From: Eledone cirrhosa
Lineage: Eukaryota
NCBI GenBank assembly: GCA_964016885.1
Contig: OZ024742.1
Coordinates: 254,014,001 to 254,078,000 of the forward strand
Reading direction: 5' to 3'
DNA length: 64,000 bases
Notes under the pieces: generated by a model
What the model saw: only the letters and a program-made list of their open reading frames with translations
What the model was told of the DNA's origin: nothing
The model's database searches: none
Shown: positions 2,544 through 62,877 of the stretch, in pieces
How the letters are laid out: every line of letters begins with the position of its first letter
How positions within the stretch are numbered: the first letter of the stretch is position 1
Translations under genes and position numbers: made by a program

Positions 2544-2546
<3 letters not shown>

Positions 2547-4942
2547 GTAATATATACTTACCTATGCAAATAAGTAATGGTATAAACACAACATATACTG
2601 AGCTACCACGCCAAGACGTAAAATACCCATGTATAGATCGTACTATCCGTTAGGGTATAATGTGGCGCTGTAATACAGGAAAGTTTTGTGCAATTTATAT
2701 TTACAAGCCGAAATTGCCTCAGATTTTTTGTTTAAGATGTGGCCTGTGGCGTAGAGTATTTCCAAGGCCTCAGCGGCGCAGAGGTCACTTGGTCTTTAAT
2801 TTCCGTTATACGATCTAGCCCTAGCTAGGATCTCCCAGTGTAACTTATATCGAGTGTGGTTGTCTTTTAGACTCCAGATATAAGCTGAAAGTGACGTCAT
2901 ATTCTTTCTTAGAGGGTAACGAAAAAAATGGGTATGCATGTAAAGACGCTGCTCGAATCTATTGACGGTTAACCCTATGTAGGCCCTACGGGACGTGGGT
3001 GTTACAACCCTACATTTGCAGACAATGTTACTAGAAAGGCATTTCCCGGATCGGGGCAATCAACCCGATTCCTACAATTACAGTTAGTACTAACTACAGG
3101 GTTGCACGTGTTCCTACGGCTAGATAGTTTAGTCAAATTTGAAGCCGTGATGTTATGTGCAAGGTTAGGAGTCGTAGAGTAAGACATTTTAATAGTATTT
3201 CTATTAAAAATGTTACTATATTTATGTGTAGGGGGAAATGCTTCGTAATAAAGAATAGAAAAATCTTAGCTAATGGTGTGGCCACCTCCATATTATATGG
3301 TGGGTTATACCATATAATGCGACGGCATCGATTTCTTCTAGGTTTATCCTCGTACTCTGTATATGCTACCTTATCGACAAATCCACTCCGAGCAAGAGCT
3401 TCATTGTAATATGTGGAATGGTCGTTGAAAATATGCTCGTTAGTAGATAGACGGGAAAGCCTCAACGAAACGTTTCTTACCAGGTTCTTGGTTATGCTGG
3501 CACGATGGTTGGAATGCTTACTTATGTAATTAAGCTTATCATTCGGCTTTCTATACGGGTAATACAAGCCATTCTATAAATTGAGGGTAACGTCGAGGTA
3601 ATTAACGACCGAGAGGTTGGCCTCAACCTGTATAGAGAGGTTGAAGCCTTTAAAGAAGGTTGTGAGTTTTTTTCTGAACCTGTCGCAAGCACGAGGGCCG
3701 CACTTTGTCATGGTCAAAAGAACATCATCGCGGTACAAACCACCGCCTGCGTTGGGGAATTCGTCCTTGATAGAGAAAAGAAGGAAAAGGCCGATAAGAT
3801 CAGTAACCTCCGCAGAATCGCTGGCACCCATACTCACGTCGAATGGGGTACTATTGGATTTTTTAATCCAAATAGAGTCATCGAAATTAATCACCGACTT
3901 ACGGGCATTGAGGATGACATCAACTTCGAAATCCTTAACCACTGTGAGTGTTTTAGCGAAATTGATAGCTCTAAGGAGAAGTGGTAAAGTGATGGAGGTG
4001 TAGTAATTATTGATGTCGAATTGGATAAAACGGCAATGTTCCTTGTTGCATATGCCGTTGAACCAATCAATCACCGCGAAAGAATTGTTCCACAGTGTAA
4101 GAGGGGCCAAACTTCTAATTTCAGGTATAATTCTATCAAGAATCCTTTTCCTAAGTCTACCTAAATCGGACTTCGTAGGGTTAATAAGCCGAATAGAGGG
4201 GTTGTTCGGAAAATTGGATTTGTGATCCTTCAGGTTAAAGTGGGGAGAAATAGGGTCCAGAGGTTCGGTCCGGTCCAGGATGTTGAGATCGGAGGTGATT
4301 TTAAACCCAGCATCGTTGATTTCATTGATGACTAACCGATTAGTTTACGGTAATCCTTAGTACAGCATTATGTAGTAGTTGATGGTAAGTACTGCGCTCC
4401 ACTTGATATAGGTTGCCAGTTTTGTCGGAATGGACGTGCACGGCATTAGAATCCTTAATAGAACGAATTCTATTCTTCAGGTCCTGCTGGAAGGAATTGC
4501 TCCTATTCCGAAATTTGATACTCCGTATGAGTTCCAAGACATCATTTTCAAAGGGTAGCAATGCTGGGTTACACGGAGGGTTATTTTAGGCAATTTCGGC
4601 TTGTAAACATAAATTGCACAAAACTTTCCTGTATTACAGCCCCACATTATACCCTAACGGATAGTACGATCTATACGTTGATATTTTACGTAATCACGTG
4701 GTAGCTAAGTATATGTTGTGTTTATACCATTACTTATTTGCATAGGTAATTATATATTACCTGTATGTTTTGTGAAGGGAAAGTTTCCACGAACCAAAGT
4801 ATCGTCTTCCTCTCTTCCTCCGGTTGCAACGCTTTTTGAAATATCCACTTCTGCGTTTACAGATTGACTTTGTTAGTTTCAGAAGATCCCGTTAAGGGTG
4901 AAAGCAGCAATTCTTTGCTTAAACTTTAATCTGTTATTATAA

Positions 4943-4947
<5 letters not shown>
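2544..4947 (-). mobile_element. Penelope-like element, 5'-truncated, frameshifted RT + GIY-YIG, with inverted 3'-end copy; flanked by (TA)n on both sides
   Basis: RT motifs FDINNYY, MGASDS, LYRDD, NYLDV (3574-4110); CNCR..CP linker and YIGLT..F..R GIY-YIG motif (2796-3187); inverted repeat 2544-2719 / 4588-4763. Confidence 0.92.
4875..4925 (+). ncRNA. Hammerhead-like motif, non-canonical core (CAGAAGA)
   Basis: agttt-CAGAAGA-tccc gttaa gggt-GAAA-gca...tgc-TT-aaact; three stems form; U4A core change; second copy at 10334-10384. Confidence 0.55.
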
Positions 4948-4995
<48 letters not shown>

Positions 4996-5001
<6 letters not shown>

Positions 5002-5622
5002 CGTCCCTTCACGCACAAGGCGCCAAGGTACGCATGTATTGTCCAACCAAGTGCCAATGTGGTTCAATGGCGGGTTAATAAATTAACGAGCCAGAACAAA
5101 TATAAACAAGGTTTAGTAAATAATGAAAAAGTTTCAAAATAAATTTTAAAAAATTGACTTTACCTACTATAGTTACCTTTACCGATCGGTTTCGAATCCC
5201 AAAAATAAAACGGAGACCATACGGCCTTCGTTGCAAAGAAAGATTCTCGTCAGAAGATTCTTTTCATTCAAAGAATATAAAATTCCTGAATTTAAATCAC
5301 AAACTAGCGCTATCAAAAACTGTTCCTGGGATGAGAGTGGATGATGTAGAACAGGTTTATCAAGGGCCGTAGCAAAGATAGAGGCAAAAGGAGGTAGGTC
5401 AAACTAGCCACCGCTATTGCTAGCAGCAGTCGGAATGACCCGGTTTGTTCTCAACGTTAGTGGAGGTAGTAGTAATATGAAATACGTCCCTTCACGCACA
5501 AGGCGCCAAGGTACGCATGTATTGTCCAACCAATTCGAAACCGATCGGTAAAGGTAACTATAGTAGGTAAAGTCAATTTTTTAAAATTTATTTTGAAACT
5601 TTTTCATTATTTACTAAACCTT

Positions 5623-5624
<2 letters not shown>
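4996..5624 (-). mobile_element. Non-coding HHR-containing retrozyme-like unit (483-bp period, terminally redundant) plus short inverted arm
   Basis: Direct repeat 4996-5050 / 5479-5533; 5534-5624 is the reverse complement of ~5104-5195; (TA)n on both sides. Confidence 0.75.
5175..5258 (-). ncRNA. Type I hammerhead ribozyme
   Basis: Minus strand: atctt-CTGACGA-gaatc[long insert]gattc-GAAA-ccgatcg-GTA-aaggt; canonical core, palindromic stem III ACCGATCGGT, GUA site. Confidence 0.88.
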
Positions 5625-5706
<82 letters not shown>

Positions 5707-8384: not shown

Positions 8385-8454
<70 letters not shown>

Positions 8455-8491
8455 ATTAAATAAATGGAAATTATATTTATAAAACCATATT

Positions 8492-8557
8492 TATTTCATT
8501 ATATATATTTCAGGGATATCATATTAAAAATATGTTATGCCTTCTTCAGACAAAATA
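8492..8557 (-). ncRNA. Type I hammerhead ribozyme (mirror copy)
   Basis: Reverse complement of 8693-8758. Confidence 0.85.
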
Positions 8558-8692
8558 CAATATAGACAGTCTTATAAATAAATAGATTCGACATACCGTT
8601 CAACATCGACTTGCATTTGAAAAGTTGATTTGAATGCAAGTCGATGTTGAACGGTATGTCGAATCTATTTATTTATAAGACTGTCTATATTG

Positions 8693-8758
8693 TATTTTGT
8701 CTGAAGAAGGCATAACATATTTTTAATATGATATCCCTGAAATATATATAATGAAATA
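8693..8758 (+). ncRNA. Type I hammerhead ribozyme
   Basis: tattttgt-CTGAAGA-agg..catatt ttt aatatg..cct-GAAA-tatat-ATA-atgaaata; 8-bp stem I with two GU pairs, palindromic (AU)n stem III. Confidence 0.85.
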
Positions 8759-9054
8759 AATATGGTTTTATAAATATAATTTCCATTTATTTAATATCGT
8801 AAATATACTCCAAATACTTGTTGAGTGCTTTTATATCAGTTATAAATATTTACTCGTTGTAACCCAACAATTTAAATATAACTTTCCATGTATATATATA
8901 TATATATATATATATATGTTTAATATAGAAATGGCTTCTACAGGACTAGAACTTTCATTTCTAGTTATACTCTGCCATCTATTGAGTACCTTACTTACTC
9001 TGGTTACCCCCGATTGAACCTGGGATACACACACACACACACATGTATATATAC

Positions 9055-10316: not shown

Positions 10317-10322
<6 letters not shown>

Positions 10323-10660
10323 TAACAGATTAAAGTTTAAGCAAAGAATCACTGCTTTCACCATTAACGGGATCTTCTGAAACTAAAAAAATCAATCTGT
10401 GAACGCAGAAATAAATATTTCGAAAAACCTTGCAACCGAAGGCAGACAGGAAGATGATACTTTGGTTCGTGGAAACGTTCCCTGGCAAAGAACGGAAAAA
10501 AACGAAGATAATACGTCATTATTTGTAGCGGTGAAAACAATTACACGCAAAGACAAAACCACGTTTATGGTATAAATAAAGTCGTAGACTAATATTCTAT
10601 TAGGTGGTTCATGGAGACGTTCTCTGGCGATGAACGGAAAAACGAAGATAATGCGTCATT
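10317..10660 (-). mobile_element. Solo PLE 3' tail, same family as 4770-4947, with hammerhead-like motif at 10334-10384
   Basis: 10317-10480 is reverse-complement similar to 4775-4945; same CAGAAGA..GAAA motif; internal ~55-bp duplication near 10463 / 10606. Confidence 0.75.
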
Positions 10661-10830
10661 GATATATATATTTATCCTTATTCAAATTTATTATTATTAC
10701 TAAAGTACCAGTAATACACTGAGATAATTGCTGGCCTTGTGCCAAAAGTAGAAACAATTATTATTACTAAAGTACCAGTAATGTACTGAGTTATTGCCGG
10801 CCTTGTGCCAATAGTAGAAACAATTATTAT

Positions 10831-10891
<61 letters not shown>

Positions 10892-12906: not shown

Positions 12907-13329
12907 TTATATATAGGGTTTAAAGTTTTGGAACGAGTGTCGGAAGCGGTGTTGGCAATTTGCGAACACTTCTGATTTTTTATTAAGGAGATTATGTTTA
13001 GAGAAGATGATAGTATGGGTCTCTAGTAGACAGAGGTTACAAAATTTATCAGGTGGTTTGTACGATGTTGCACTACCTACCACTTCCCATTTAAGTGTAT
13101 ATATTTTATTTTTAGTTTTTAGATAGTGTATGTAGCTAGATAGTGAAGTGGAGTTGGCTAGACTGTGTTTTTTGAAAGAGTGGAGGTGCGAATTGTATCT
13201 AGTTTTGAAGCAGTTAGAAGTGGAGCCTATGTAGGTTTCAGAAGAGCTGTTAGTTGTGACTGTGCATGAGTATATGATATCCTTGGTTAAGCATTTTTTA
13301 TCTAAAGGGCAGGTTCTACTTGATTTATC
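12907..13329 (-). CDS. PLE GIY-YIG endonuclease domain (no start codon, absent from the ORF track)
   Basis: Hand translation: CPLDKKCLTKDIIYSCTV..ETYIGSTSNCFKTRYNSHLHSF..TSLSSYI..LKWEVV..CNLCLLE..LLNKKSE..CQHR..; similar to ORF 40592-41107. Confidence 0.88.
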   Translation of the reverse strand, partial: DKSSRTCPLDKKCLTKDIIYSCTVTTNSSSETYIGSTSNCFKTRYNSHLHSFKKHSLANSTSLSSYIHYLKTKNKIYTLKWEVVGSATSYKPPDKFCNLCLLETHTIIFSKHNLLNKKSEVFANCQHRFRHSFQNFKPYI

Positions 13330-13825: not shown

Positions 13826-13828
<3 letters not shown>

Positions 13829-14350
13829 GTAGAACACTGGGAGGTAATATCCGTAGTGGTAGAGCACTCAGTCCATGGGACGAGTTAGGTAGAAGTGGTT
13901 ACTCAACAGTTAGTTCACCATACCGAGAACAATTGTTTCACCTTAGCGGATCCTCAGCTCGTAATGGACATGGTTATACGGAACAGGAAGGACAACCGTA
14001 CGAACGCGCATGCGAAGAAACCGTCACTTCACACAGGCAATACTAAAAAGCGTGCGAGATGTGTAAGGGAGATAACTGCGAAAGTCCGAAAGGTTTCTAG
14101 TTAATAAGAAAAAATAAGATGTTGTGATTCAATCCGGAGTTTTGTAGTTATGTAAGAGGTGTTTCGAGACGTGTGGACAACGTGTGAAGAATTCATTACT
14201 CGTGTTTAGGCAATCACTATTGCATAATCTCTTTAGTATATTTTTCGTTCATCAATACATAGTCTACACGACGGATTCCGCCTTGCATATGGCTTGGACT
14301 TAGTGATGGCTTTCCATTGAATGGAGTAGTCTATACTTGAGTCCTTGAGG
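13826..14350 (-). mobile_element. PLE 3' fragment: frameshifted GIY-YIG C-terminus + 3' UTR + HHR, ending at (TA)n
   Basis: Minus 14340-14128 reads YSIQW..SKPY..CRLCIDE..CLNTSNEFFTRCPH with frameshifts; HHR at 13918-13967. Confidence 0.78.
13918..13967 (-). ncRNA. Type I hammerhead ribozyme
   Basis: Minus strand: ccattacgag-CTGAGGA-tcc gctaa ggt-GAAA-caatt-GTT-ctcggtatgg; palindromic stem III, GUU site. Confidence 0.82.
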
Positions 14351-14356
14351 AACCAT

Positions 14357-14797
14357 AGTAAGTGACATAGTCACTACTTTAAAAATGAGAGCATATGGTC
14401 TTCTAAATATTTTTAATTAAACATACAGTATATTGCCAAATATACTATACATACATTCAAGTATAAATCGCTATTTCAGAGTACCAATCCTAATACCTAA
14501 TTTTTGCTGGACCGGCAATCGCTCTGTATAATCAGCTCCTGATTATTACTGGAATTCTACCAGCTTCTATAATTTTTGGCAAAAGCAGGGGAGTACATGG
14601 CTATGATGAACGCTAACCAGTGTGAAACAGACTGTCAGCTTCTCCCCCTTCTTCACCGAAAAGAAGTAAGTGACATAGTCACTACTTTAAAAATGATAGC
14701 ATATGGTCTTCTAAATGTTTTTAATTAAACATACGGTATATTGCCAAATATACTATACATACATTCATGTATACATCACTATTTAAGAGCACCAATC

Positions 14798-15534: not shown

Positions 15535-15862
15535 ATCAAAGGCAAAAGGTTTATCCACTCGGGGTGAGGAGAAACCATACATAATGCCATCTTCACTTTG
15601 TTGTTGTTCTTGTCCAGTTTAATGTCCAGTTTTCATAGTTGTATAAGTTAAATGGGTTGTCATGTTATGAGACAAGTCAGGTCAGATGAATGCATCTTAC
15701 TCATATGGAACTGTTTCTGACTTGGTTTCTACAGCTGGATACCCTTCTTAATGTCAACCACATTACAGTATGGATTGGATACTTTTTATCATGTCACCAA
15801 ACAACAATCTGACAGGTTAGGCTGGGTATATATATATATATATACCCAGCCTAACCTGTCAG

Positions 15863-16045
15863 GTTACTCAGCTGTAGAAATGAGATGATAGGGACTGGGG
15901 TAAAAAAAGCACCCAGCACTCACTGTAAATGAGGTTGGTGTTAGGAAGGGCATCCAGCTGTAGAAACCAAGCCAGAATCAGTTCCTGTCCCACCCTTGCA
16001 ATCAGGGAAAAAGCGGACGTAAAATGAAATGATGATGAAATGATA
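15863..16045 (+). mobile_element. 5'-truncated Meta-like SINE
   Basis: Matches the 3' half of 44243-44580. Confidence 0.8.
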
Positions 16046-21229: not shown

Positions 21230-21240
21230 CATATATAGCA

Positions 21241-21422
21241 GTGGGTACACAAAAGTTAGTTCACCATACCGAAGAACAACTGTTTCACCTCAGCGAATCC
21301 TCAGCGGTGAAAGAAACGTTCTCGGTATGGTGAACTAACTATTGTATAACCACTTCTACCTAACTCGTTCCATGGACTAGGTGCTCTACCACTACGGATA
21401 TTACCTTCCAGTGTTCTACCAC
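21241..21422. mobile_element. Fold-back copy of the 13826-13967 PLE tail, inverted within the HHR
   Basis: Right part is the reverse complement of 13826-13940; left arm is in the same orientation as 13898-13958; (TA)n on both sides. Confidence 0.82.
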
Positions 21423-35694: not shown

Positions 35695-38600
35695 TGTCGA
35701 CAAATACCCAAAACTCCGAGTTGGTACCATTAATGTAGGCTCAATGAAAGAAAGAGCAGGAGAAATCGTAGAAATGCTAGAGCGAAAGGAAATTGATGTA
35801 TGCTGTGTGTAAGAGACTAGATGGAGAGGAGAGTCTGCCAGAGTCCTTGTAGGAAAAAGTCGGTGCTACAAATTTTTCTGGGTGGGAAATGACGATGGGA
35901 TGGGTGGTGTAGGTATACTACTAGCTGACAAGTGGGTAGATAAAGTAATCTCAGTGTACAGGGTAAATGCAAGAATCATTAAACTCAGACTAGTCCCGAA
36001 TAAAACAATTACCACAATAATATCAGCTTACGCACCCCAATCGGGGCTGCCAGACGAACTTAAGGATAGGTGTTACGAGTCCCTAATGCACACTACTGCT
36101 CTAACAGACGACAATGACTTCCTAATCATCGCAGGAGATTTTAACGGACACGTAGATAAACACTACGATGGCTTCAATAGAGTACATGGAGGCCATGGGG
36201 TTGGCACAAGGAATGAGGAAGGATTCAGACTTCTAGAATTCTGCGAAGCCAATGACATGTCGATATGTAACACAAACTTTAAAAAACCCGACAACCACCT
36301 GATCACCTATAGATGAGGGGAGAACTCTAGTCAGATAGATTTTATCCTCATCAGAGGATGTGACAGATGGACAGTCGTAAACACAAAAGCCTTCCCTAGT
36401 GAGGAATGTACATCCCAACATAGCTTAGTTATCAGCGACCTCACGGTCAGAACTAGACGAACCCGGAAACAGAGCCCATCCTGGAGAAGAAAGATATGGA
36501 AGCTGAAAGTCCCCTCAAACAGTAACAGATTTAAAGATATTTTACTCAACGCCTACGACAGTAAAGAAGAACAGATAGAGACATTTAATGTAGAAGAGAA
36601 CTGGGAGTTCCTAAAAAATAATTTACTAGAGGCGACGGATGAGGTCTGTGGCTGGAGTAAGACCTCAAGCAGGAGGAGAGTGACTTGGTGGTGGAACAAT
36701 AAGGTAGATGAAGCAGTTAAGGCCAAGAGACAGGCATGGAAAGAATGGAAGAACGGGGGGAGCAGGGTACATTACATAGAGACCAAGAGGGAAGCTAGGC
36801 GACAAGTATACTTAGCTAGGAGGGAAGCAGAGGATAGAAAATTCAAGCATGTTTTGCAACGTGAGGACCAGAAACAGGAGGTATTCAAGATTGCGAGGCA
36901 GTGTGTCAGAGATAGTTATAATGTCATTTGAGAGAAGTGTATCCGGAATGATAAAGGTGAGCTTGCCCTCACAAGTGCTGACAAGAAAGATGCATGGAAG
37001 AGTCATTATGATAAATTACTAAATGAGGAGAATGCATGGGAAGAAGAGACCCTACCACAAGTAGACCCTATAGAGGGACCAGCAGTACAAGTCAGCAGCA
37101 GCGTAGTAAGTAAGGCAATCAAAGATATGAAGATGGGGAAGGCAACCGGTCCATCGGGTATAGCTGCCGAGATGCTGAAGGCAACTGGATCTGTAGGTCA
37201 CACTATAACCACACGTATTGTTAACCAGGTAATACTAGGTGTCATACCAAAAGATTGGTGCAGTAGCATCATTGTCAATTGCTACAAAGGTAAAGGTGAT
37301 GCACTAGATAGAGGAAACTATAGAGGTATAAAGTTGATGGACCAGGTCATGAAAGTAACAGAAAGAGTTATAGCACAGTTAATTAGGGACCGGGTGAAAA
37401 TAGACGAGATGCAATTTGGGTTTGTACCAGGAAGAGGTACCACTGATGCCCTCTTCCTTGTGAGGCAATTACAGGAAAAGTACCTAGCTAAAAGTAAGCC
37501 TCTCTACTTGGCATTTGTCGACCTTGAGAAAGCCTTTGACAGAGTTCCACATGCTGTAATCTGGTGGGCTTTAAGAAAACTAGGAGTAGATGAATGGCTT
37601 GTGAAAGCGGTACAAACCATGTATAGGGGAGCAGTCAGCAAAGTTAGGATTAGCAATGAGTATAGCGAGGAATTTAGCGTACAGGTTGGGGTCCACCAGG
37701 GCTCTGTTCTTAGCCCCCTCCTGTTCATCATAGTCCTGCAGGCAATAACAGAGGAGTTTAAGACCGGATGCCCATGGGAACTCCTGTATGCTGATGACCT
37801 CGCACTTATAGCTGAATCTATGGTAGAACTAGAGAAGAAATTCCAAACTTGGAAGCAGGGACTAGAAAGAAAGGGGTTCAAAGTCAACATGACAAAGACT
37901 AAGGTCCTTGTAAGTAGACGAGAAAACAGAACCCAGATCCCCTCAGGGAAATGGCCTTGCTCAGTATGTAGGAAAGGTGTAGGTAGGTACTCCATTCTCT
38001 TCCCCAAATGCAAACAATGGGTACACAAGAGATGTAGCGGGATCTCAGGAAGCTTAATTAAGAATGTAGGCTTCACATGCAGAAGCTGTGCTGAGACAGC
38101 AAGCAGCAAACAGCCACAGGAAACAAGTACCACCAATCTCTGGGAGGGTTCTGTAGAAACAGTAGACAGCTTCTGCTACCTAGGTGACCGAATTAGCAGC
38201 GGAGGTGGGTGTTCAGAAAGTACAATAACTAGGGTAAGAACGGGATGGAAGAAGTTTAGGGAACTGCTACCACTGCTAGCTGCAAAAGGCTTCTCCCTCA
38301 GAATGAAAGGCAGACTGTATGATGCGTGTATCCGAACAGCAATGTTGCATGGTAGTAAGACCTGGGCGCTGAAGGTGGAAGACTTACGTAGATTAGAGAG
38401 AAACGAAGCCTGCATGCTCCGATGGATGTGTAACAGTAATATACGTTAACGACAATGTATAAATGAATTGAGAGAGAGACTGAGCATAAGAGGAATCAAA
38501 TGCTGTGTGCAGGAGAGGCGGTTGCGCTGGTATGGACATGTGATGCGTATGAAGGATGACAGCTGCATAAAAAGGTGCAGAGCACTAGAAGTTGATGGAA

Positions 38601-38755
38601 ACCGCGGAGTGGGGAGACCCAGGATGACCTGGGATGAGGTGATAAAAGCCGACCTTACCCAATTACACCTCTCAAAGGCAATGACACACGACCGTGACTT
38701 CTGGCGTCACGCAGTAATACAGAGTACCCGACCTCCCATGGGTACAAGCTGAAGC
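35695..38755 (+). mobile_element. Near-full-length RTE LINE with few in-frame stops
   Basis: Collinear APE (35882), linker (36680), RT (37127) and C-terminal (38468) ORFs. Confidence 0.95.
37127..38449 (+). pseudogene. RTE reverse transcriptase domain with an embedded Cys-rich (PHD-like) segment
   Basis: NYRGI, QFGF, DLEKAFD, GVHQGSVLSP, YADD, CxxC..CKQWVH.RC..CxxC, YLG. Confidence 0.93.
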
Positions 38756-39150: not shown

Positions 39151-39448
39151 TATTAAGACAGGGGGGAAGAAAAAATGGCTTCACTTGTGCTTTCAACAAA
39201 TTTATTTTCTTCACAAAATCCAAAAAGAATTTTTTTCCCGGATTAGAAAAAACATTTTTTTTTTTTTTTTTTCTTAAAAAAAATTATTTTATAAAATAAT
39301 TTTTTTTAAGAAAAAAAAATTCTAATCCGGGAAAAAAATTATTTTTGGATTTTGTGAAGAAAATAAATTTGTTGAAAGCACAAGTGAAGCCATTTTTTCT
39401 TCCCCCCTGTCTTAATATACCTAACTACCAAGGATTACACACATTTTC

Positions 39449-39450
<2 letters not shown>
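39151..39450. repeat. Asymmetric fold-back element in (TA)n
   Basis: 39151-39247 is the near-perfect reverse complement of 39321-39416, with an A/T-rich centre; right arm extends ~35 bp further. Confidence 0.85.
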
Positions 39451-40216: not shown

Positions 40217-40396
40217 TTGTTTCTACTTTAGGCACAAGGCCAGCAATTACCCAGTGCATTACTGGTACTTTATTTTATCGACCCCGTAAGGATGAAAGGC
40301 AAAGTCAACCTCGGCGGGATTTGAACTCAGATCGTAAAGGGACGTAACTATGCTTGAAAGCATGGCGTCCGACCCTCTACCGATACTGCCAATCCA
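40217..40396 (-). mobile_element. Nin/Deu-like tRNA SINE
   Basis: Same head and core as 18185-18377. Confidence 0.87.
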
Positions 40397-41486
40397 AACA
40401 ATACTGTTTGCCATAATAACAATGATAGAAACCAGGATAATAATGATAGTAATAACAATAACATTAACAATATCAACACCATAGAGACTAACCACAGCAT
40501 TAATAGTGGAACTGATGACCAGGATAGAAACTGTAGCAGTGATAACAACAGCAGTAGAGGGAGCCATAATAAGAACAATAGAAATAACACCATGTCGCAA
40601 AACTATATCTGTAATAATGCCAACCGCAACAATGACGACAGCAGTGATAGTGGTAATGATAGTAGTAATGATAGCAGCGAACCTCACCACATTAGAAATA
40701 GCAACAAAAGGCATTACAATTGTCGAAACCTCAACAACTGTCCACTCCAGGGCCACTGCTTGATTAGAAATGTAATCTACAAATGCACTCTGATGAGTTA
40801 TAATAGCATAAAGTCATATATAGATGCCACTTCTAATGAGTTCAAGACTAGATTTAGATCGCATCTCCTCTCATTTAGAAATAAGAAACTCAGATTCTCT
40901 ACCTCCCTTGATAATTATATTACACTATTAACTGAATCTAACATTAGCTACACCACACAATGGGGAAAAGTTGATCAAGCAACCCCATATAATTTTAGGA
41001 ATAATTGCCAGCTCTGCCTAATGGAAACATACTTTATAGTGAACTCACCCCAGGAACTCATTAATAGTCGGGCTGAAACAGTCATCAATTGCAACCACAG
41101 ACTATAGCACTCGTTCTACAAGTGGTCTCCAGAACAAGAATAACATCCTATCCCCACAGCTATCTGCATCGCACCACCATTTAGTCCACCTACAATAAGT
41201 AGGTCAAAGTGCAGTGTCTAATGACGCTATTAACCCTCCATCTGATTTTTACTGAGGCACTGCCCATCACCTACTGAGTTAGGCTCACCCTGCTAAACCT
41301 TCCCCCAAGCTGGGATAGGTTAAAATAAATTTGAGGGTAATTTAATGCCTAGCATCGTACAGTTACCTCCCCTAGTGGATTATGCCCCTTTCACTGACGC
41401 CATTGTTGTTATTTTTTTCGTTTATCATGCAAGAAATGATTCTCAACGGTATTTATACTTATTGATGACATTATACAATCAATTAT

Positions 41487-48990: not shown

Positions 48991-48994
<4 letters not shown>

Positions 48995-49453
48995 ATTAAA
49001 TAAATGGAAACTATATTTATAAAACCATATCTATTTCATTATATATATTTCAGGGATATCATATTAACAATATGCTATGCCTTCCTCAGACAAAATACAA
49101 TATAAACAGTTTTATAGATAAATAGATTCGACATACCGTAACAACATCGACTTGTATTTGAAAAGGTTGATTGACTGCCAAATCAACCTTTTCAAATACA
49201 AGTCGATGTTGTTACGGTATGTCGAATCTATTTATCTATAAAACTGTTTATATTGTATTTTGTCTGAGGAAGGCATAGCATATTGTTAATATGATATCCC
49301 TGAAATATATATAATGAAATAGATATGGTTTTATAAATATAGTTTCCATTTATTTAATATTGTAAATATACTCCAAATATTTGTCGAGTGCTTTTATATC
49401 AGTTATAAATATTTACTAGTTGTAACCCAACAATTTAAATATAACTTTCCATG
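48991..49453. mobile_element. Second asymmetric fold-back element with an HHR in each arm (49032-49097 minus, 49256-49321 plus)
   Basis: Arms 48991-49172 / 49181-49362, 8-nt spacer; same start and end nucleotides as 8451-8890. Confidence 0.9.
49256..49321 (+). ncRNA. Type I hammerhead ribozyme
   Basis: tattttgt-CTGAGGA-agg..catatt gtt aatatg..cct-GAAA-tatat-ATA-atgaaata. Confidence 0.85.
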
Positions 49454-50237: not shown

Positions 50238-50242
<5 letters not shown>

Positions 50243-52043
50243 ATATTTGGGGAGGGTCATATTTGCGTAATATTGCCAGAATTAATAACAGCACACACTC
50301 ACTGTTTGGTTGGTTTTCGCTTCTCGCTGTCTTTTATATATATATATCTGCGATCTAACTTACTCGGTCCTCAATGTTGCCATTGACTGACCGGCGGTCA
50401 AAAATAATACAGATACAATATAGACAAACACATATATATATAGTTTACATAATTTACATAAATCTTTCGTTGCACATCTGCAACATCGTCAGTGGTGTTA
50501 TATTCATTGTTCCTCCTGTTGTGTTGTATGTCTACGCCATTTTTTTTGTTCAGTCTGTCTATATATTTATTTATTTATTTGCTTGTTTGTTTATCTTATT
50601 TTATTTTGTCTTCTTTGCGCATGCGTTTGCGTGTGTGTATAGTGTTATGTGTGATGTGTGACTAGTGTGTACAGTGTTGTGTCTGCTGGGTGACTAGTGT
50701 GTGTTTATGTGCTTGTGTATGTATTTATTTATCTTATTTTATTTTATTTAATTTACTTATTTATTTATACTTCTCTTAGGTCAGTGTTGTTTGTTTGGGT
50801 GTTGTTGTTGTTCCACTCATTCTTTCTGTTTAGCTTTGCTCTTCTAATTTCTATTTCACTGGCCTCTCTGATTTGCCTATCTGCTGGGTCATTTCTATGT
50901 TTAGATATTATTCTAATTTCTATGTTGTCTATGTTACCGTCATGTTGTTGTCTAGCATGTTCGTATAGTACTGACCCGTTTTTTCGTCCTTTTAGTTCCC
51001 CCCAGTGTTGGTCTATCCTTTCACCTATGCTACGAGCTGTCTCACCTATGTATGTTGTTGTCGTGTTTCTGCAAGTACCCTCTGTACATCTTATGCTATA
51101 GACTACGTTTCTAGTTTTACAGTTTATCCGGGGGTTCACCTTACATATGATACATTTCCTATTGGTACAGTGGGTTTTCTTAAAAGGGTAGGTTCTGCTG
51201 ATCAGGGATTTTATGGTGGTTCCTGGCTTTTCTACCACCTTTATTTTTAAGTGGGTCTTTCTCAGGGCCTTTCTACACTGGTTAGCTAATTTCCCTCCAG
51301 GGGTGGCGTCCACAAACATGACACTCTGATATCTCTGGTTGTCGTACCATGATGTGGCCTTCCCTATCTTATGTCTAGCCCTATCTAAGCTATTCCATGA
51401 TTTGCTCCTGTATAGTGGGCAAATTCCTTTCATGTCCAGTTCTATGAGGGTCTTATACTTTTCCATGGCTCCTTCGTATACTCTGACTCTGTCTCTTTGG
51501 TTGTAGCCAGAGAACTGCATGCGGTTGATGAAGTGTTGGATGTGTCCTTCCATTTCTGTTGGGTCGCACATGCTGGACACATTCTTCATCACTCGTACCA
51601 AATCTGCGATCAGAATATTAAACTTAGCACTACTGGACATTGCTGAGTTTTTGAGTATCAGGTATTTGGAGGCCATGGGTTTAGCATAGTGTGAGTGGAG
51701 AATTTGGGCTCTCTCGTCTATAGTGTTAATCCAGAGTTCTGTGTCTAATACAGGTAGTCTATTGCAACGAAAGATTTATGTAAATTATGTAAACTATATA
51801 TATATGTGTTTGTCTATATTGTATCTGTATTATTTTTGACCGCCGGTCAGTCAATGGCAACATTGAGGACCGAGTAAGTTAGATCGCAGATATATATATA
51901 TAAAAGACAGCGAGAAGTGAAAACCAACCAAACAGTGAGTGTGTGCTGTTATTAATTCTGGCAATATTACGCAAATATGACCCTCCCCAAATATAACAAT
52001 ATCTGTTTCGACACACGATTTCATATAAAAAACCTCGCAAAAC
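50238..52043 (-). mobile_element. 5'-truncated Penelope-like element with inverted 3'-end copy, flanked by (TA)n
   Basis: Inverted repeat 50238-50474 / 51763-52002 around a GIY-YIG ORF. Confidence 0.92.
50765..51676 (-). CDS. PLE RT thumb/linker + GIY-YIG endonuclease (uninterrupted 303-aa C-terminal part)
   Basis: C....C..C linker, NVVYSIRC..TYIGETARSIGERIDQH, RQIREA, LNRKNEW. Confidence 0.9.
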   Translation of the reverse strand: MASKYLILKNSAMSSSAKFNILIADLVRVMKNVSSMCDPTEMEGHIQHFINRMQFSGYNQRDRVRVYEGAMEKYKTLIELDMKGICPLYRSKSWNSLDRARHKIGKATSWYDNQRYQSVMFVDATPGGKLANQCRKALRKTHLKIKVVEKPGTTIKSLISRTYPFKKTHCTNRKCIICKVNPRINCKTRNVVYSIRCTEGTCRNTTTTYIGETARSIGERIDQHWGELKGRKNGSVLYEHARQQHDGNIDNIEIRIISKHRNDPADRQIREASEIEIRRAKLNRKNEWNNNNTQTNNTDLREV

Positions 52044-52186: not shown

Positions 52187-54552
52187 AATAATAATATAAT
52201 AATAATGAAATTATTGTGTACAGTGCTCAGGTGCACTACAACTCATCAAAGGTGCATGTATAGTACATAGAATAATGTACAAATGTCAGGAAAATAAACA
52301 GTGTATGAGTCATGATATAATAACAATAACAATAATGAAATATTGTGCACAGTGCCCAGGTGCACCACAACCCATCAAAAAAGTGCATGTACAGTACATA
52401 GGGCAATGCACAAACATCAGTAAAATGAACAGTGCACACATGTGTGCATGTGTATGGAAGGGGCACATCAGGTGTAGTTTTGGCGTATTTCGGGAAGCAT
52501 GAGTGTCTTAAAGGATGCAGTGTCTCGGCAGCTAACAATTGACGCAGGCAGTTTGTTCCATGTTTCAGCAACTCTGAGCGTGAAAAAATGTCTGCGAAAG
52601 TCATGGGAGCTGTGCTGTTTTCTTATCTTGTAGGCATGTCCACGTGTGTTAGACACATGGAGATCAAAGAGGCGCTCAGGGTTGCAGTTGGCGAGATGGT
52701 TAAAAACTTTGTGGGTATTCACCAAGTCCACTGCCAGACGTCGGAGCTTCAATGAATCCATGCCCAGGGAAGCAAGGCGTTCAGAGTATGGTAGGTGTCT
52801 GATGGAGGGTATGCGCTTGGTTGCACGTCTCTGAACAGTTTCCAGGAGGTCAATGTTCCGAGCAAGATAGGGGTTCCAGACTGATGATGCGAATTCCAAG
52901 TGTGGTCGCACCATAGCTGTATACAGTTTTAAATAGATGGCTGGAGAGCGGCTAACAAAGGTCTTGCTGAGTGATGCCAAGACACCCTCGGCCTTCTTGA
53001 CAATCTTAGAGACATGCTTTGTCCAACGCAAATCGTTGCTGACAGTAATGCCTAGGTCACGTTCACAAGAGGACTTTTTGATGTCAGTGTTGTGGAGGGA
53101 GTATGTGGACGCTGGATTTTTCCTTCCAAAATGCATGGTGGTACACTTGTCCACAGCCAGCTTCAGTTGCCAGTCTGTGATCCATTGCTGCATTGTGTCC
53201 AGGTCTGATTGTAGGAAAGAGTTGTAAATTTCAGGATCAGTCCTTTTGATTTCAAGGTACAGCTTGATGTCATCTGCATATTTTAGTACCGTGGCATTCT
53301 GTAAGTTGGCATCTATGTCATTAATATATGCCACAAACAAAAGAGGACCAAGAACAGATCCCTGTGGTACACCAGATGACATCTCATATGGTGAAGAATG
53401 CTGTCCTAGAACCGTGACTACTTCCCTTCGGCTGAGAATGAAGGATTTCAGCCAGTCGAAAAGATCATCCCTCACACCCATTGCAGAGAGTTTTGCCATA
53501 AGTCTTTTGTGTGGCACAGAATTAAAAGCCTTAGCAAAGTCAAGGTAAACAACATCCACCCATGAGCCGCTGTCAGTGATCCGGGTGATGTCCTCAAGGA
53601 ACTCGATAAGCTGATCACAGCAGCTGGAGTTAGGGATAAATCCAAACTGTGAGGGCCGGATGAGGCTGTGAGAGCTCCAGAAGTTCCAAAGTGTTTCTCT
53701 GACACAGGATTCCATCAGTTTGGCCATACAGCTAGTAAGACTGACTGGACGATAGTTGACAGGTGACATGCGGTTGCCCTTTTTGAACAGGGGAATGACA
53801 CTGGCAGTTTTCCACTGCTCCGGAGTAGCACCATTGCTGAGACAGTATTGAAAGAAAAAAGAAAGCTGGCGCAAAAGGAAATCCCCGCCACGTTTGAGAA
53901 GCAGGTATGTCACACCATCAAGACCAGGGGAGGCATAGTTGCGCATATTCTTAAGGTGACGTCGCAACATTGCAGGTGTAAATTCCATAGTTGTTATGGA
54001 ATTTGATGTTAGAGATGGTGGAGATGGTACATTCTGGTTTTCAACAGTAAAAATACTTGCATAGCACTCAGCAATGAGTTCTGCGCATTCCTTGGGATCG
54101 TCAGTGATCTGGCTTGTGTGGGGATTGCGAAGAGGACCAACTGGAGAGTGAGGTCTCTGCTTTGAATGAACATATTTCCAGAACACCTTACTGTCAGGAT
54201 TGGTTGCGATGCACTGTTCAAATTCAAGCACTGCCTTCTTTGTCACTTGCTTGAGATGGTTAGAAGATTTATTCCGCTTTTTTCTGTTGGCATCTGATCT
54301 ATGCAGTTTATATTCCCGTTCAGCGTTCCGACGTTCTTTCCTGGCAAGTCGGACTGCTGAAGTTTCCCAGATTGCACTTTTGGGGTGGTTATTTTTCCGC
54401 TTCCGTGGCACTGATGCTGCACACGCTATCCATATTGAGTCCAGGATGCTCTGGAGTATAGAGTTCACATCTCCAGAGTTATACATCTCATGCCAGTTTG
54501 GGCGCTGTAGCTCAGTATAGATTGCATTTTTGTTTTTAAAATCCAAATTCAA
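52187..54552 (-). mobile_element. Young 5'-truncated CR1-like LINE with 3' UTR and (TTA)n tail
   Basis: Uninterrupted 694-aa RT ORF; 3' end shared with 61143-61589. Confidence 0.93.
52468..54552 (-). CDS. CR1-like reverse transcriptase (APE missing)
   Basis: NYRPVSLTS, QFGF, VYLDFAKAF, SGVPQGSVLGP, YADD, RDLG, VRPHLE, TRGH, FFTLRV..WN.LP. Confidence 0.95.
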   Translation of the reverse strand: MNLDFKNKNAIYTELQRPNWHEMYNSGDVNSILQSILDSIWIACAASVPRKRKNNHPKSAIWETSAVRLARKERRNAEREYKLHRSDANRKKRNKSSNHLKQVTKKAVLEFEQCIATNPDSKVFWKYVHSKQRPHSPVGPLRNPHTSQITDDPKECAELIAECYASIFTVENQNVPSPPSLTSNSITTMEFTPAMLRRHLKNMRNYASPGLDGVTYLLLKRGGDFLLRQLSFFFQYCLSNGATPEQWKTASVIPLFKKGNRMSPVNYRPVSLTSCMAKLMESCVRETLWNFWSSHSLIRPSQFGFIPNSSCCDQLIEFLEDITRITDSGSWVDVVYLDFAKAFNSVPHKRLMAKLSAMGVRDDLFDWLKSFILSRREVVTVLGQHSSPYEMSSGVPQGSVLGPLLFVAYINDIDANLQNATVLKYADDIKLYLEIKRTDPEIYNSFLQSDLDTMQQWITDWQLKLAVDKCTTMHFGRKNPASTYSLHNTDIKKSSCERDLGITVSNDLRWTKHVSKIVKKAEGVLASLSKTFVSRSPAIYLKLYTAMVRPHLEFASSVWNPYLARNIDLLETVQRRATKRIPSIRHLPYSERLASLGMDSLKLRRLAVDLVNTHKVFNHLANCNPERLFDLHVSNTRGHAYKIRKQHSSHDFRRHFFTLRVAETWNKLPASIVSCRDTASFKTLMLPEIRQNYT

Positions 54553-54569
54553 TAAACAGACCAGGATTT

Positions 54570-54629
54570 TTTCATTCTGAGGATTGAAAGCAAAATCCTT
54601 TGCTTTTAAGAAACCACTGGTAAATGGAA
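54570..54629 (+). ncRNA. Type I hammerhead ribozyme
   Basis: tttcatt-CTGAGGA-ttgaaagcaaaa tcc ttttgcttttaa-GAAA-ccactg-GTA-aatggaa; 12-bp stem II, GUA site. Confidence 0.88.
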
Positions 54630-54923
54630 TAATTGCCTTATGTTGTTTATTACATAACTATGTATATATATATACGGTATTCAACAAAAGAAAACACAGG
54701 AGAAGAATGAAGTACAATGATGCTACGTATAAGTTAGTTTAAATTAGTTTAACGCTTAATATTATTGGCAAAGAGTCTTAAGGTTTCAGAAATTAATCCT
54801 TCATTGGAACTTAGAATGAAAGATAGAGGAGAAATAGATGGATAGATGAGAGTAAGAAAGAGAAGAAGCAGGATAAAATGTTTTCACAAGAGGAAAGCAC
54901 ATGTGTTCTCTTAGCCATATATA

Positions 54924-61790: not shown

Positions 61791-61935
61791 TGAACATTTA
61801 ATATAGAAATGGTTTCTACAGGACTAGAACTGTTTCATTCAATCATCAAGAGTGGTCTTTACATTCCAGATGATTTCATACGAATGAAACAGTTCTAGTC
61901 CTGTAGAAGCTATTTCTATATTAAATTTTCATTGT
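61791..61935. mobile_element. Fold-back of the 10.9-kb HHR family, decayed cores; inverted duplicate at 62751-62877
   Basis: Plus: ttc-CAGATGA-tttcatacgaat-GAAA-cagttctagtcct-GTA-gaag; the opposite arm carries TTGATGA..GAAA. Confidence 0.75.
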
Positions 61936-62040: not shown

Positions 62041-62621
<581 letters not shown>

Positions 62622-62672
62622 AGGCACATGGCTTAGTGGTTAGAGCAGAGCATTGGCCTTGCAATCGAAAGG

Positions 62673-62757
<85 letters not shown>

Positions 62758-62877
62758 GCTTCTACAGGACTAGAGCTGTTTCATTCGTATGAAATCATCT
62801 GGAATGTAAACACCACTCTTGATGATTGAATGAAACAGTTCTAGTCCTGTAGAAACCATTTCTATATTAAATGTTCA

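Follow-up and report, generated by a model that had tools for sequence, protein, structure and literature searches.

Inverted PLE insertions in TA repeats of Eledone cirrhosa pair two fixed ends, in keeping with twin priming

In the 3.0-Gb genome of Eledone cirrhosa, inverted PLE insertions in (TA)n tracts are built of two inverted arms, one ending at a fixed short (S) site of its family and the other at a fixed long (L) site. After cleaning, 105 of 106 inverted insertions had this S+L composition. We consider it rather probable that they arise by twin priming, in which both strands of a cut TA tract prime, one at S and one at L, probably on one RNA. The original prediction had put forward twin priming or fold-back; the former is supported by the S+L pairing, by haplotypes shared between arms, and by arms that are often non-nested or non-overlapping. 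The inverted shape, the (TA)n targets, and two in vitro start sites have already been published; the S+L rule, the shared haplotypes, and the non-nested arms are new.

Inverted insertions in the window

The window is a stretch of 64,000 nt, positions 254,014,001 to 254,078,000 of contig OZ024742.1, in which arms were found by self-comparison; its repeat landscape is one that we take to be cephalopod-like. Seven loci had been singled out there as having inverted arms with TA repeats at both outer ends, and all seven have this layout, with coordinates good to a few bases. The loci sort into six families: A (2544), B (4996), D (21241 and 13826), E (8451 and 48991), F (39151), and G (50239). The architecture itself is already known; here it occurs in new Hydra- and Neptune-type families.

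The family A insertion (2544 to 4946) is of Hydra type, with its body on the minus strand, broken RT/GIY-YIG frames at ~3133 to 4344, and a short inverted arm at ~4583 to 4946 on the plus strand that ends at the family S end. Self-comparison of its arms (2544 to 2719 and 4588 to 4763) gave 11 mismatches in 176 positions. Family B (4996 to 5625) is non-coding and retrozyme-like, with a 483-bp tandem unit. Its L arm lies on the minus strand and ends at 4996, positions 4996 to 5104 forming a 109-nt tail; its S arm (5533 to 5625) lies on the plus strand and matches 5105 to 5197 without a mismatch in 93 nt. A type I hammerhead core was read by eye on the minus strand at ~5191 to 5254.

Family E is represented by two hairpin insertions, both with the S end at left and the L end at right. 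The Hydra-type copy at 8451 to 8890 has an 88- to 91-nt tail. In the young copy at 48991 to 49453, the S end reads AATATTG|TA and the long arm begins at ACTGCC, the family E 5' hotspot, which follows TC in full copies. In family D, an old Hydra-type hairpin (21238 to 21422, left end approximate) has an S-like end at left, an L end at right, a tail of ~66 nt, and arms ~79 to 81% alike. A single-arm copy on the minus strand (13826 to 14380, right boundary approximate) has its L end at 13826, and no inverted arm was seen.

The Neptune-type hairpin of family F (approximately 39151 to 39450) again has its S end at left and its L end at right, with a 36- to 38-nt tail. The family G insertion (50239 to 52043), which is Neptune/Nematis-like, combines a 1,526-nt S arm on the minus strand, containing an RT-thumb/GIY-YIG frame (50765 to 51775), with a 236-nt L arm and 45-nt tail on the plus strand. 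The arms overlap by 2 nt at the junction and differ at 1 position in 236. One further S+L insertion, related to family A and absent from the original list, lies at 10318 to 10833, with its S end at 10318 and a tail-only L arm near 10660 to 10700, followed by a duplicated SINE piece and (TA)n; its layout is the same as that of another genomic locus (L210).

Family identity

The assignment of these insertions to PLEs is supported, with Hydra-type motifs in families A, D, and E and matches to both RVT_1 and GIY-YIG in family F. Section 11 of PMC8557442 gives the marks of the Hydra clade as a CxCx5C linker, DKT, a terminal CxxC and CxH, and no CCHH. A full-length family E copy has a unit of ~3.83 kb and a single 744-residue frame, stop to stop, in which we read by eye CNCRDRSKC (the CxCx5C linker), KSDKT (DKT), CDLC, and CKH, no CCHH, and RWR where RWK is expected; the E protein gave no Pfam match, and its assignment comes from these motifs. 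Family A yielded CNCRNRVDC, CDLC, and CKH, and family D yielded CYCRKPEAC and CGLC, likewise by eye. Judged by these motifs, families A, D, and E carry the marks of the Hydra clade. They also resemble that clade in their (TA)n targets and, for E, a single ORF, whereas the clade is described as generally <3 kb and the E unit reaches ~3.8 kb.

Family F matched Pfam RVT_1 (E = 5.9e-9) and GIY-YIG (E = 1.6e-6). Neptune PLEs are marked by a CX2-5CxxC linker, an EN of CCHH type, and an optional ORF1 with frameshift. Family F has the linker CGDPRCGTC (CX4CxxC) and CATC..C in the GIY-YIG core (CCHH-type EN), and its full-length copies contain two overlapping ORFs, ORF1 overlapping the next frame. We class it as Neptune-type because of the two Pfam matches, the linker, and the overlapping ORF1. 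The frame overlap is identical in two copies (L185:1951-5543 and L184), which suggests a programmed frameshift. Family G, with a weak RVT_1 match (0.0023) and the linker CTNRKCIIC, appears by eye to be Neptune- or Nematis-like, and Neptune is probable. Pfam searches of five window frames returned nothing above the cutoff. Two further Hydra-like GIY-YIG fragments from other families lie at 12907 to 13329 (minus strand), with a weak Pfam GIY-YIG match (E = 0.00084), and at 40358 to 41107 (plus strand).

Partial tandem (pLTR) arrangements, with the tail running into the ORF, were found for E units of ~3.83 kb at three loci (L177, L178, and L181) and for a family F unit of ~4.87 kb at L185; none was seen in families A and D. 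A hammerhead core, detected as a sequence motif only, lies upstream of the short end in families E, D, and G, and a type I hammerhead was read by eye in each 483-bp unit of family B. A search for the core in families A and F found none, and an Rfam scan of the window gave sub-threshold, mostly microsatellite-driven matches and no hammerhead family.

Two fixed ends per family and TA microhomology

Among the copies examined (the best 30 or fewer of 40 scored per family; 25 for D), 3' ends in all six families fell at a fixed S or L site, the two being 38 to 109 nt apart. By family, the S-to-L tail is shortest in F (38 nt), followed by G (45 or 59 nt), D (~66 nt), E (88 nt), A (90 nt), and B (109 or 116 nt). 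Joints of the family E S end to TA were present in all three Illumina runs (5,215, 5,824, and 7,873 raw short reads), so these ends are not inventions of the assembly; the raw reads also hold some opposite-strand joints.

The original prediction had the shorter arm usually stopping at an internal TA or TAT. A short TA match is indeed present, but the arm stops at a fixed family site rather than wherever TA occurs. One of the two cited examples, AATATTG|TA in the insertion at 48991 to 49453, is the family E S end. The other, CCTG|TAT at 4763, proved to be a one-off: the left end of its insertion (CCTG|TATATA, at 2544) has 1 exact match genome-wide, compared with 716 copies that read through, and it lies 184 nt inside the family A S site. 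At the opposite side of that insertion, 4946 is an ordinary S end of family A and the 90-nt tail is missing. Since 4946 is the S end and the 2544 end is unique, the segment from 4764 to 4946 is not a tail. The atypical end at 2544 probably arose either when 274 nt were lost after insertion or through a rare mis-start. The predicted asymmetry of the arms is likewise real in that it is one-sided and equals the published PLE "tail," but the long end, too, is fixed and, where the continuation is known, also sits on TA microhomology.

For 11 fixed ends, the element sequence that follows is known, and it begins with TA, TAT, ATAT, ATATA, TATAT, or ATATAT. The TA-alternating run summed over these ends was 40, a value reached in none of 200,000 null draws (p < 5e-6; null mean, 0.81 per site). 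The test covers fixed ends other than the long ends of A and D and took the D short-end run as 1 where the true run is 2, which makes it conservative. Nearby TA runs of 7 to 9 nt in families A and E are not used as ends, and end position must therefore be set by something else; it is likely that TA pairing only assists the choice of start site. Alternatively, the TA motifs at fixed ends could be relics of earlier targets. Folding of the S-to-L region, run without shuffled controls, gave no shared structure by eye.

The S+L pairing rule

Automatic pairing of arms across all loci returned 111 inverted pairs, of which 106 were L+S. For the cleaned set, we dropped double or distant rows (the second rows of L044 and L221, and L189, at 4,147 bp), a locus whose end lay off the locus (L165), and one in which both arms run into ORFs (L181); L260 was retyped as L+S. 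The sole true S+S insertion belongs to family B (L244).

Most loci were picked by their likeness to window copies, and the E and G queries favor L arms, for which reason we also took an unselected sample of 100 evenly spaced 10-kb stretches (1 Mb). It contained 96 terminal matches to the six families, a density indicating that the process shapes a large part of the palindromes and TA landscape of this genome. Among 19 inverted insertions in the sample, 18 consisted of one L end and one shorter end (p = 4e-5 versus a coin toss); the shorter end was at S in 17 and 21 nt inside S in one. PLE hairpins such as these could easily be misannotated as MITEs.

Of 25 separate family B insertions whose boundary could be seen, 17 were inverted, and 6 of the 8 non-inverted ones abut a microsatellite at their 5' end. 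Adherence of this family to the PLE S+L inverted rule suggests that it is primed as PLEs are, and not inserted by a plain rolling-circle route. On the contig of the window and ~0.7 Mb away from it, one family B inverted insertion occurs twice (L108 and L109), 3.4 kb apart and with an identical junction, which indicates a local duplication after insertion.

Arm extents argue against obligatory fold-back

Arm extents were compared at 71 clean junctions (73, minus L181 and the family B locus L244). The S arm outreached the L arm on the 5' side by more than 30 nt at 16, the L arm extended further (nested) at 27, and the two were near-equal, within 30 nt, at 28. Exact end motifs were present in 58 insertions, and in 12 of these the L arm ends within the tail, leaving the arms without shared sequence; a 13th row (L075) was dropped for its mutated S site.

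These counts bear on the idea that cDNA started at L folds back and copies itself, the hairpin then being cut by the endonuclease or joined at S. Such a route is close to the published self-priming (PMC3846280) and endonuclease-mediated resolution (PMC8557442). It accounts for S+L pairing, for the identical arm haplotypes described below, and for the many near-perfect hairpins with small loops, that is, the 28 near-equal and 27 nested junctions. It also predicts that the S arm lies inside the L arm, which is broken at the 16 junctions noted above, including 50239 to 52043 (1,526 versus 236 nt). Self-folded cDNA makes neither non-nested nor non-overlapping arms, so the two classes together exclude fold-back as an obligatory step, and of the two mechanisms in the original prediction this one fails as the general explanation. 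Rescuing it would need a precise switch to an antisense RNA. We regard fold-back as an improbable main route; it is possible for individual loci among the 27 nested and 28 near-equal ones.

At the inner junctions, arms overlapped by at least 1 nt in 36 of 73, showed no overlap in 10, and carried extra bases in 27; these are rough, alignment-based counts. Family E arms pile up 181 to 189 nt upstream of S at TC|ACT, probably a transcript start; an initiator-like TCACT in the pLTR is noted in PMC3846280. A reverse-transcribed cap G at the E hotspot was suggested by G in five of five early loci, but genome-wide the base was G in 6, A in 5, and T in 3 of 14.

Arm haplotypes point to a probable single template

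Across 21 young family E loci, the two arms never disagreed at either of two polymorphic positions, matching in 21 of 21 (p = 4e-6) and 11 of 11 (p = 5e-4) comparisons. Permutation tests on arm mismatches gave 0 of 25 in E (p < 0.0002), 2 of 20 in A (p = 0.03), and 30 of 155 in G (p < 0.0002), and were not significant in F (p = 0.15) and D (p = 0.45); in sets of mixed age, concordance can reflect age only. Family B has no shared polymorphic site and thus falls outside this test. An apparent difference between S and L arms in family G was set aside as a query-selected CpG allele. At 10 of 11 loci, the partner arm lacked this allele, which indicates that arms are not routinely homogenized later.

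Concordant arms could also come from two separate RNAs of one active source, with an asymmetric dimer taking one subunit to S and the other to L. S+L pairing, non-nested arms, and long overlaps all follow from this arrangement with no need for strand displacement, and so do shared haplotypes if a germ cell expresses one source locus; the anole protein is predicted to be dimeric (PMC11167929). It also requires a further rule by which two equivalent RNAs are kept from starting at one site, and four E haplotypes of similar age (AG, GG, GA, and AA) were never mixed within a locus. We judge it unlikely, if the most serious competitor; one RNA is probably involved rather than two from one source copy.

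A third explanation invokes independent insertions in one TA tract, later gene conversion, or palindrome assembly artifacts. TA tracts are reused by different families (as at 4947 to 4995, flanked by A and B ends), palindromes and extended TA runs are difficult for assembly, and the window contains a TA-centered inverted SINE duplication (62304 to 62673). Against this stand inner junctions without a TA tract, the S+L rule and shared haplotypes (unexpected from separate events), private alleles that are not copied between arms, and the presence of S-end-to-TA junctions and opposite-strand joints in raw Illumina reads. We consider this explanation very improbable.

A proposed model of twin priming

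For the twin priming that we favor, we envisage that the PLE protein would nick a TA tract on both strands, with priming at S from one 3' end and at L from the other. A protein dimer may hold one RNA, and the (TA)n 3' ends would pair over 2 to 6 nt at sites determined by structure. The enzyme at the long end might trail the one at the short end and displace the cDNA of the latter; alternatively, the RNA might be reused, as the lack of an RNase H would allow. The 3' ends of the two cDNAs would then join by short homology or bluntly, and the joined cDNAs would template each other's second strand. Single priming would yield the usual copies with one arm. The TCACT 5' hotspot of family E would often be reached by both cDNAs, producing hairpins of ~460 bp.

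We tentatively propose, at somewhat less than even confidence, that the main route across the Hydra, Neptune, and non-autonomous retrozyme-like families is coordinated twin priming by one complex on a single RNA at fixed TA-pairing sites, the same stretch being copied twice by displacement of the first cDNA, and that it may lengthen TA tracts. If true, this would be a mode of retrotransposition distinct both from LINE twin priming and from self-priming. Two observations do not fit: the S+S locus and the atypical end at 2544.

TA tracts as targets

In the unselected 1 Mb, 83 of 93 PLE 3' ends had (TA)4+ within 15 nt, versus 9.4% of random positions. The corresponding counts were 15 of 35 for RTE-type 3' ends (Fisher p = 2e-7 versus PLE 3' ends), 6 of 13 for SINE 3' ends (p = 8e-4), and 13 of 17 for SINE 5' ends (p = 0.23). 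The expectation that PLE ends lie closer to (TA)n than other positions thus stood relative to random positions and to RTE-type and SINE 3' ends, but the difference from SINE 5' ends was not significant. The TA link is strongest for PLEs, yet not unique to them: PLE targeting of TA is real, but much retroelement traffic in this genome sits by TA.

A flank-collinearity search for empty sites at 66 loci found no true empty site. Median TA runs in the flanks were 22 nt at S and 29 nt at L, versus a length-weighted genomic median of 24, and are compatible with a preference for long tracts, with duplication, or with later slippage. PLE 3' ends were seen to face each other across one TA tract at 4947 to 4995 (A/B) and at five other loci (L024, L153, L177, L191, and L192), the facing ends belonging to different families or being two ends of one family, which indicates that tracts are reused as targets.

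Relation to known systems

PMC8557442 describes an inverted 5'-truncated copy, often with a 30- to 40-bp tail at one end only, together with (TA)n targets and masked TSDs, and names the origin of tandem and inverted structures and the microsatellite preference as open questions; PMC3846280 proposes self-priming on an antisense template. The insertions reported here resemble the EN+ PLEs of these sources in the inverted truncated copy, one-sided tail, partial tandems, (TA)n, lack of a discernible TSD, and TCACT motif, with tails of 38 to 109 nt here rather than the published 30 to 40. They differ from those accounts in the near-strict S+L pairing, which is quantified here, and in the haplotypes and non-nested arms that oppose self-priming. 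Within the titles and abstract openings covered, none described for PLEs an S+L rule, haplotypes of the arms, or twin priming; the one-sided rule may be put more firmly in older reviews.

PMC11167929 reports in vitro work on Poseidon from Anolis (PAc), in which both strands of an AT-rich target are cut and extended from two internal starts downstream of the hammerhead, their spacing corresponding to the tail. Extension of both target strands, two internal start sites, and an AT-rich target are common to PAc and the present families. The PAc start sites are reported to be non-homologous to the target, whereas here there are TA matches of 2 to 6 nt, and the family E start sites, unlike those of PAc, precede the start of the ORF. 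How start sites are combined within a single insertion is not taken up in the portion of the PAc report drawn on here. The S+L rule, the haplotypes, and the non-nested arms connect the two starts seen in vitro with insertions present in a genome. The same evidence argues against the published self-priming and predicts that each doubly extended target uses both starts once.

In LINE-1 twin priming, both strands prime on one RNA, producing a 5' inversion with a short-overlap junction in an insertion flanked by a TSD; the second primer anneals at variable internal sites, and the arms are mostly non-overlapping. In the PLE insertions, by contrast, neither site varies, and overlaps of tens to hundreds of bases are the rule between arms; where the L arm consists of tail only, the outcome resembles a non-overlapping L1 inversion. 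Non-LTR retrozymes (10.64898/2026.07.22.740005) share with family B a non-coding tandem unit and a type I hammerhead in each unit.

Other inverted repeats and LINEs in the window

At 62304 to 62673, 54 bp of a SINE 5' end are inverted and duplicated, 100% alike, around ~131 TA units, a geometry opposite to that of the PLE loci; a long TA tract may have broken and folded back here, or the assembly may be in error. Segments 61791 to 61917 and 62751 to 62877 are inverted copies that are 98% alike. A short perfect palindrome centered on ~9 TA units (15798 to 15863) lies between two head-to-head SINE-like copies (15707 to 15985, 71% alike). The window also contains a near-complete element at 35768 to 38752, presumably an RTE-type LINE, whose (ATG)n tail is shared with a SINE, and an RT frame of 729 residues at 52468 to 54657 that we take to belong to a LINE.
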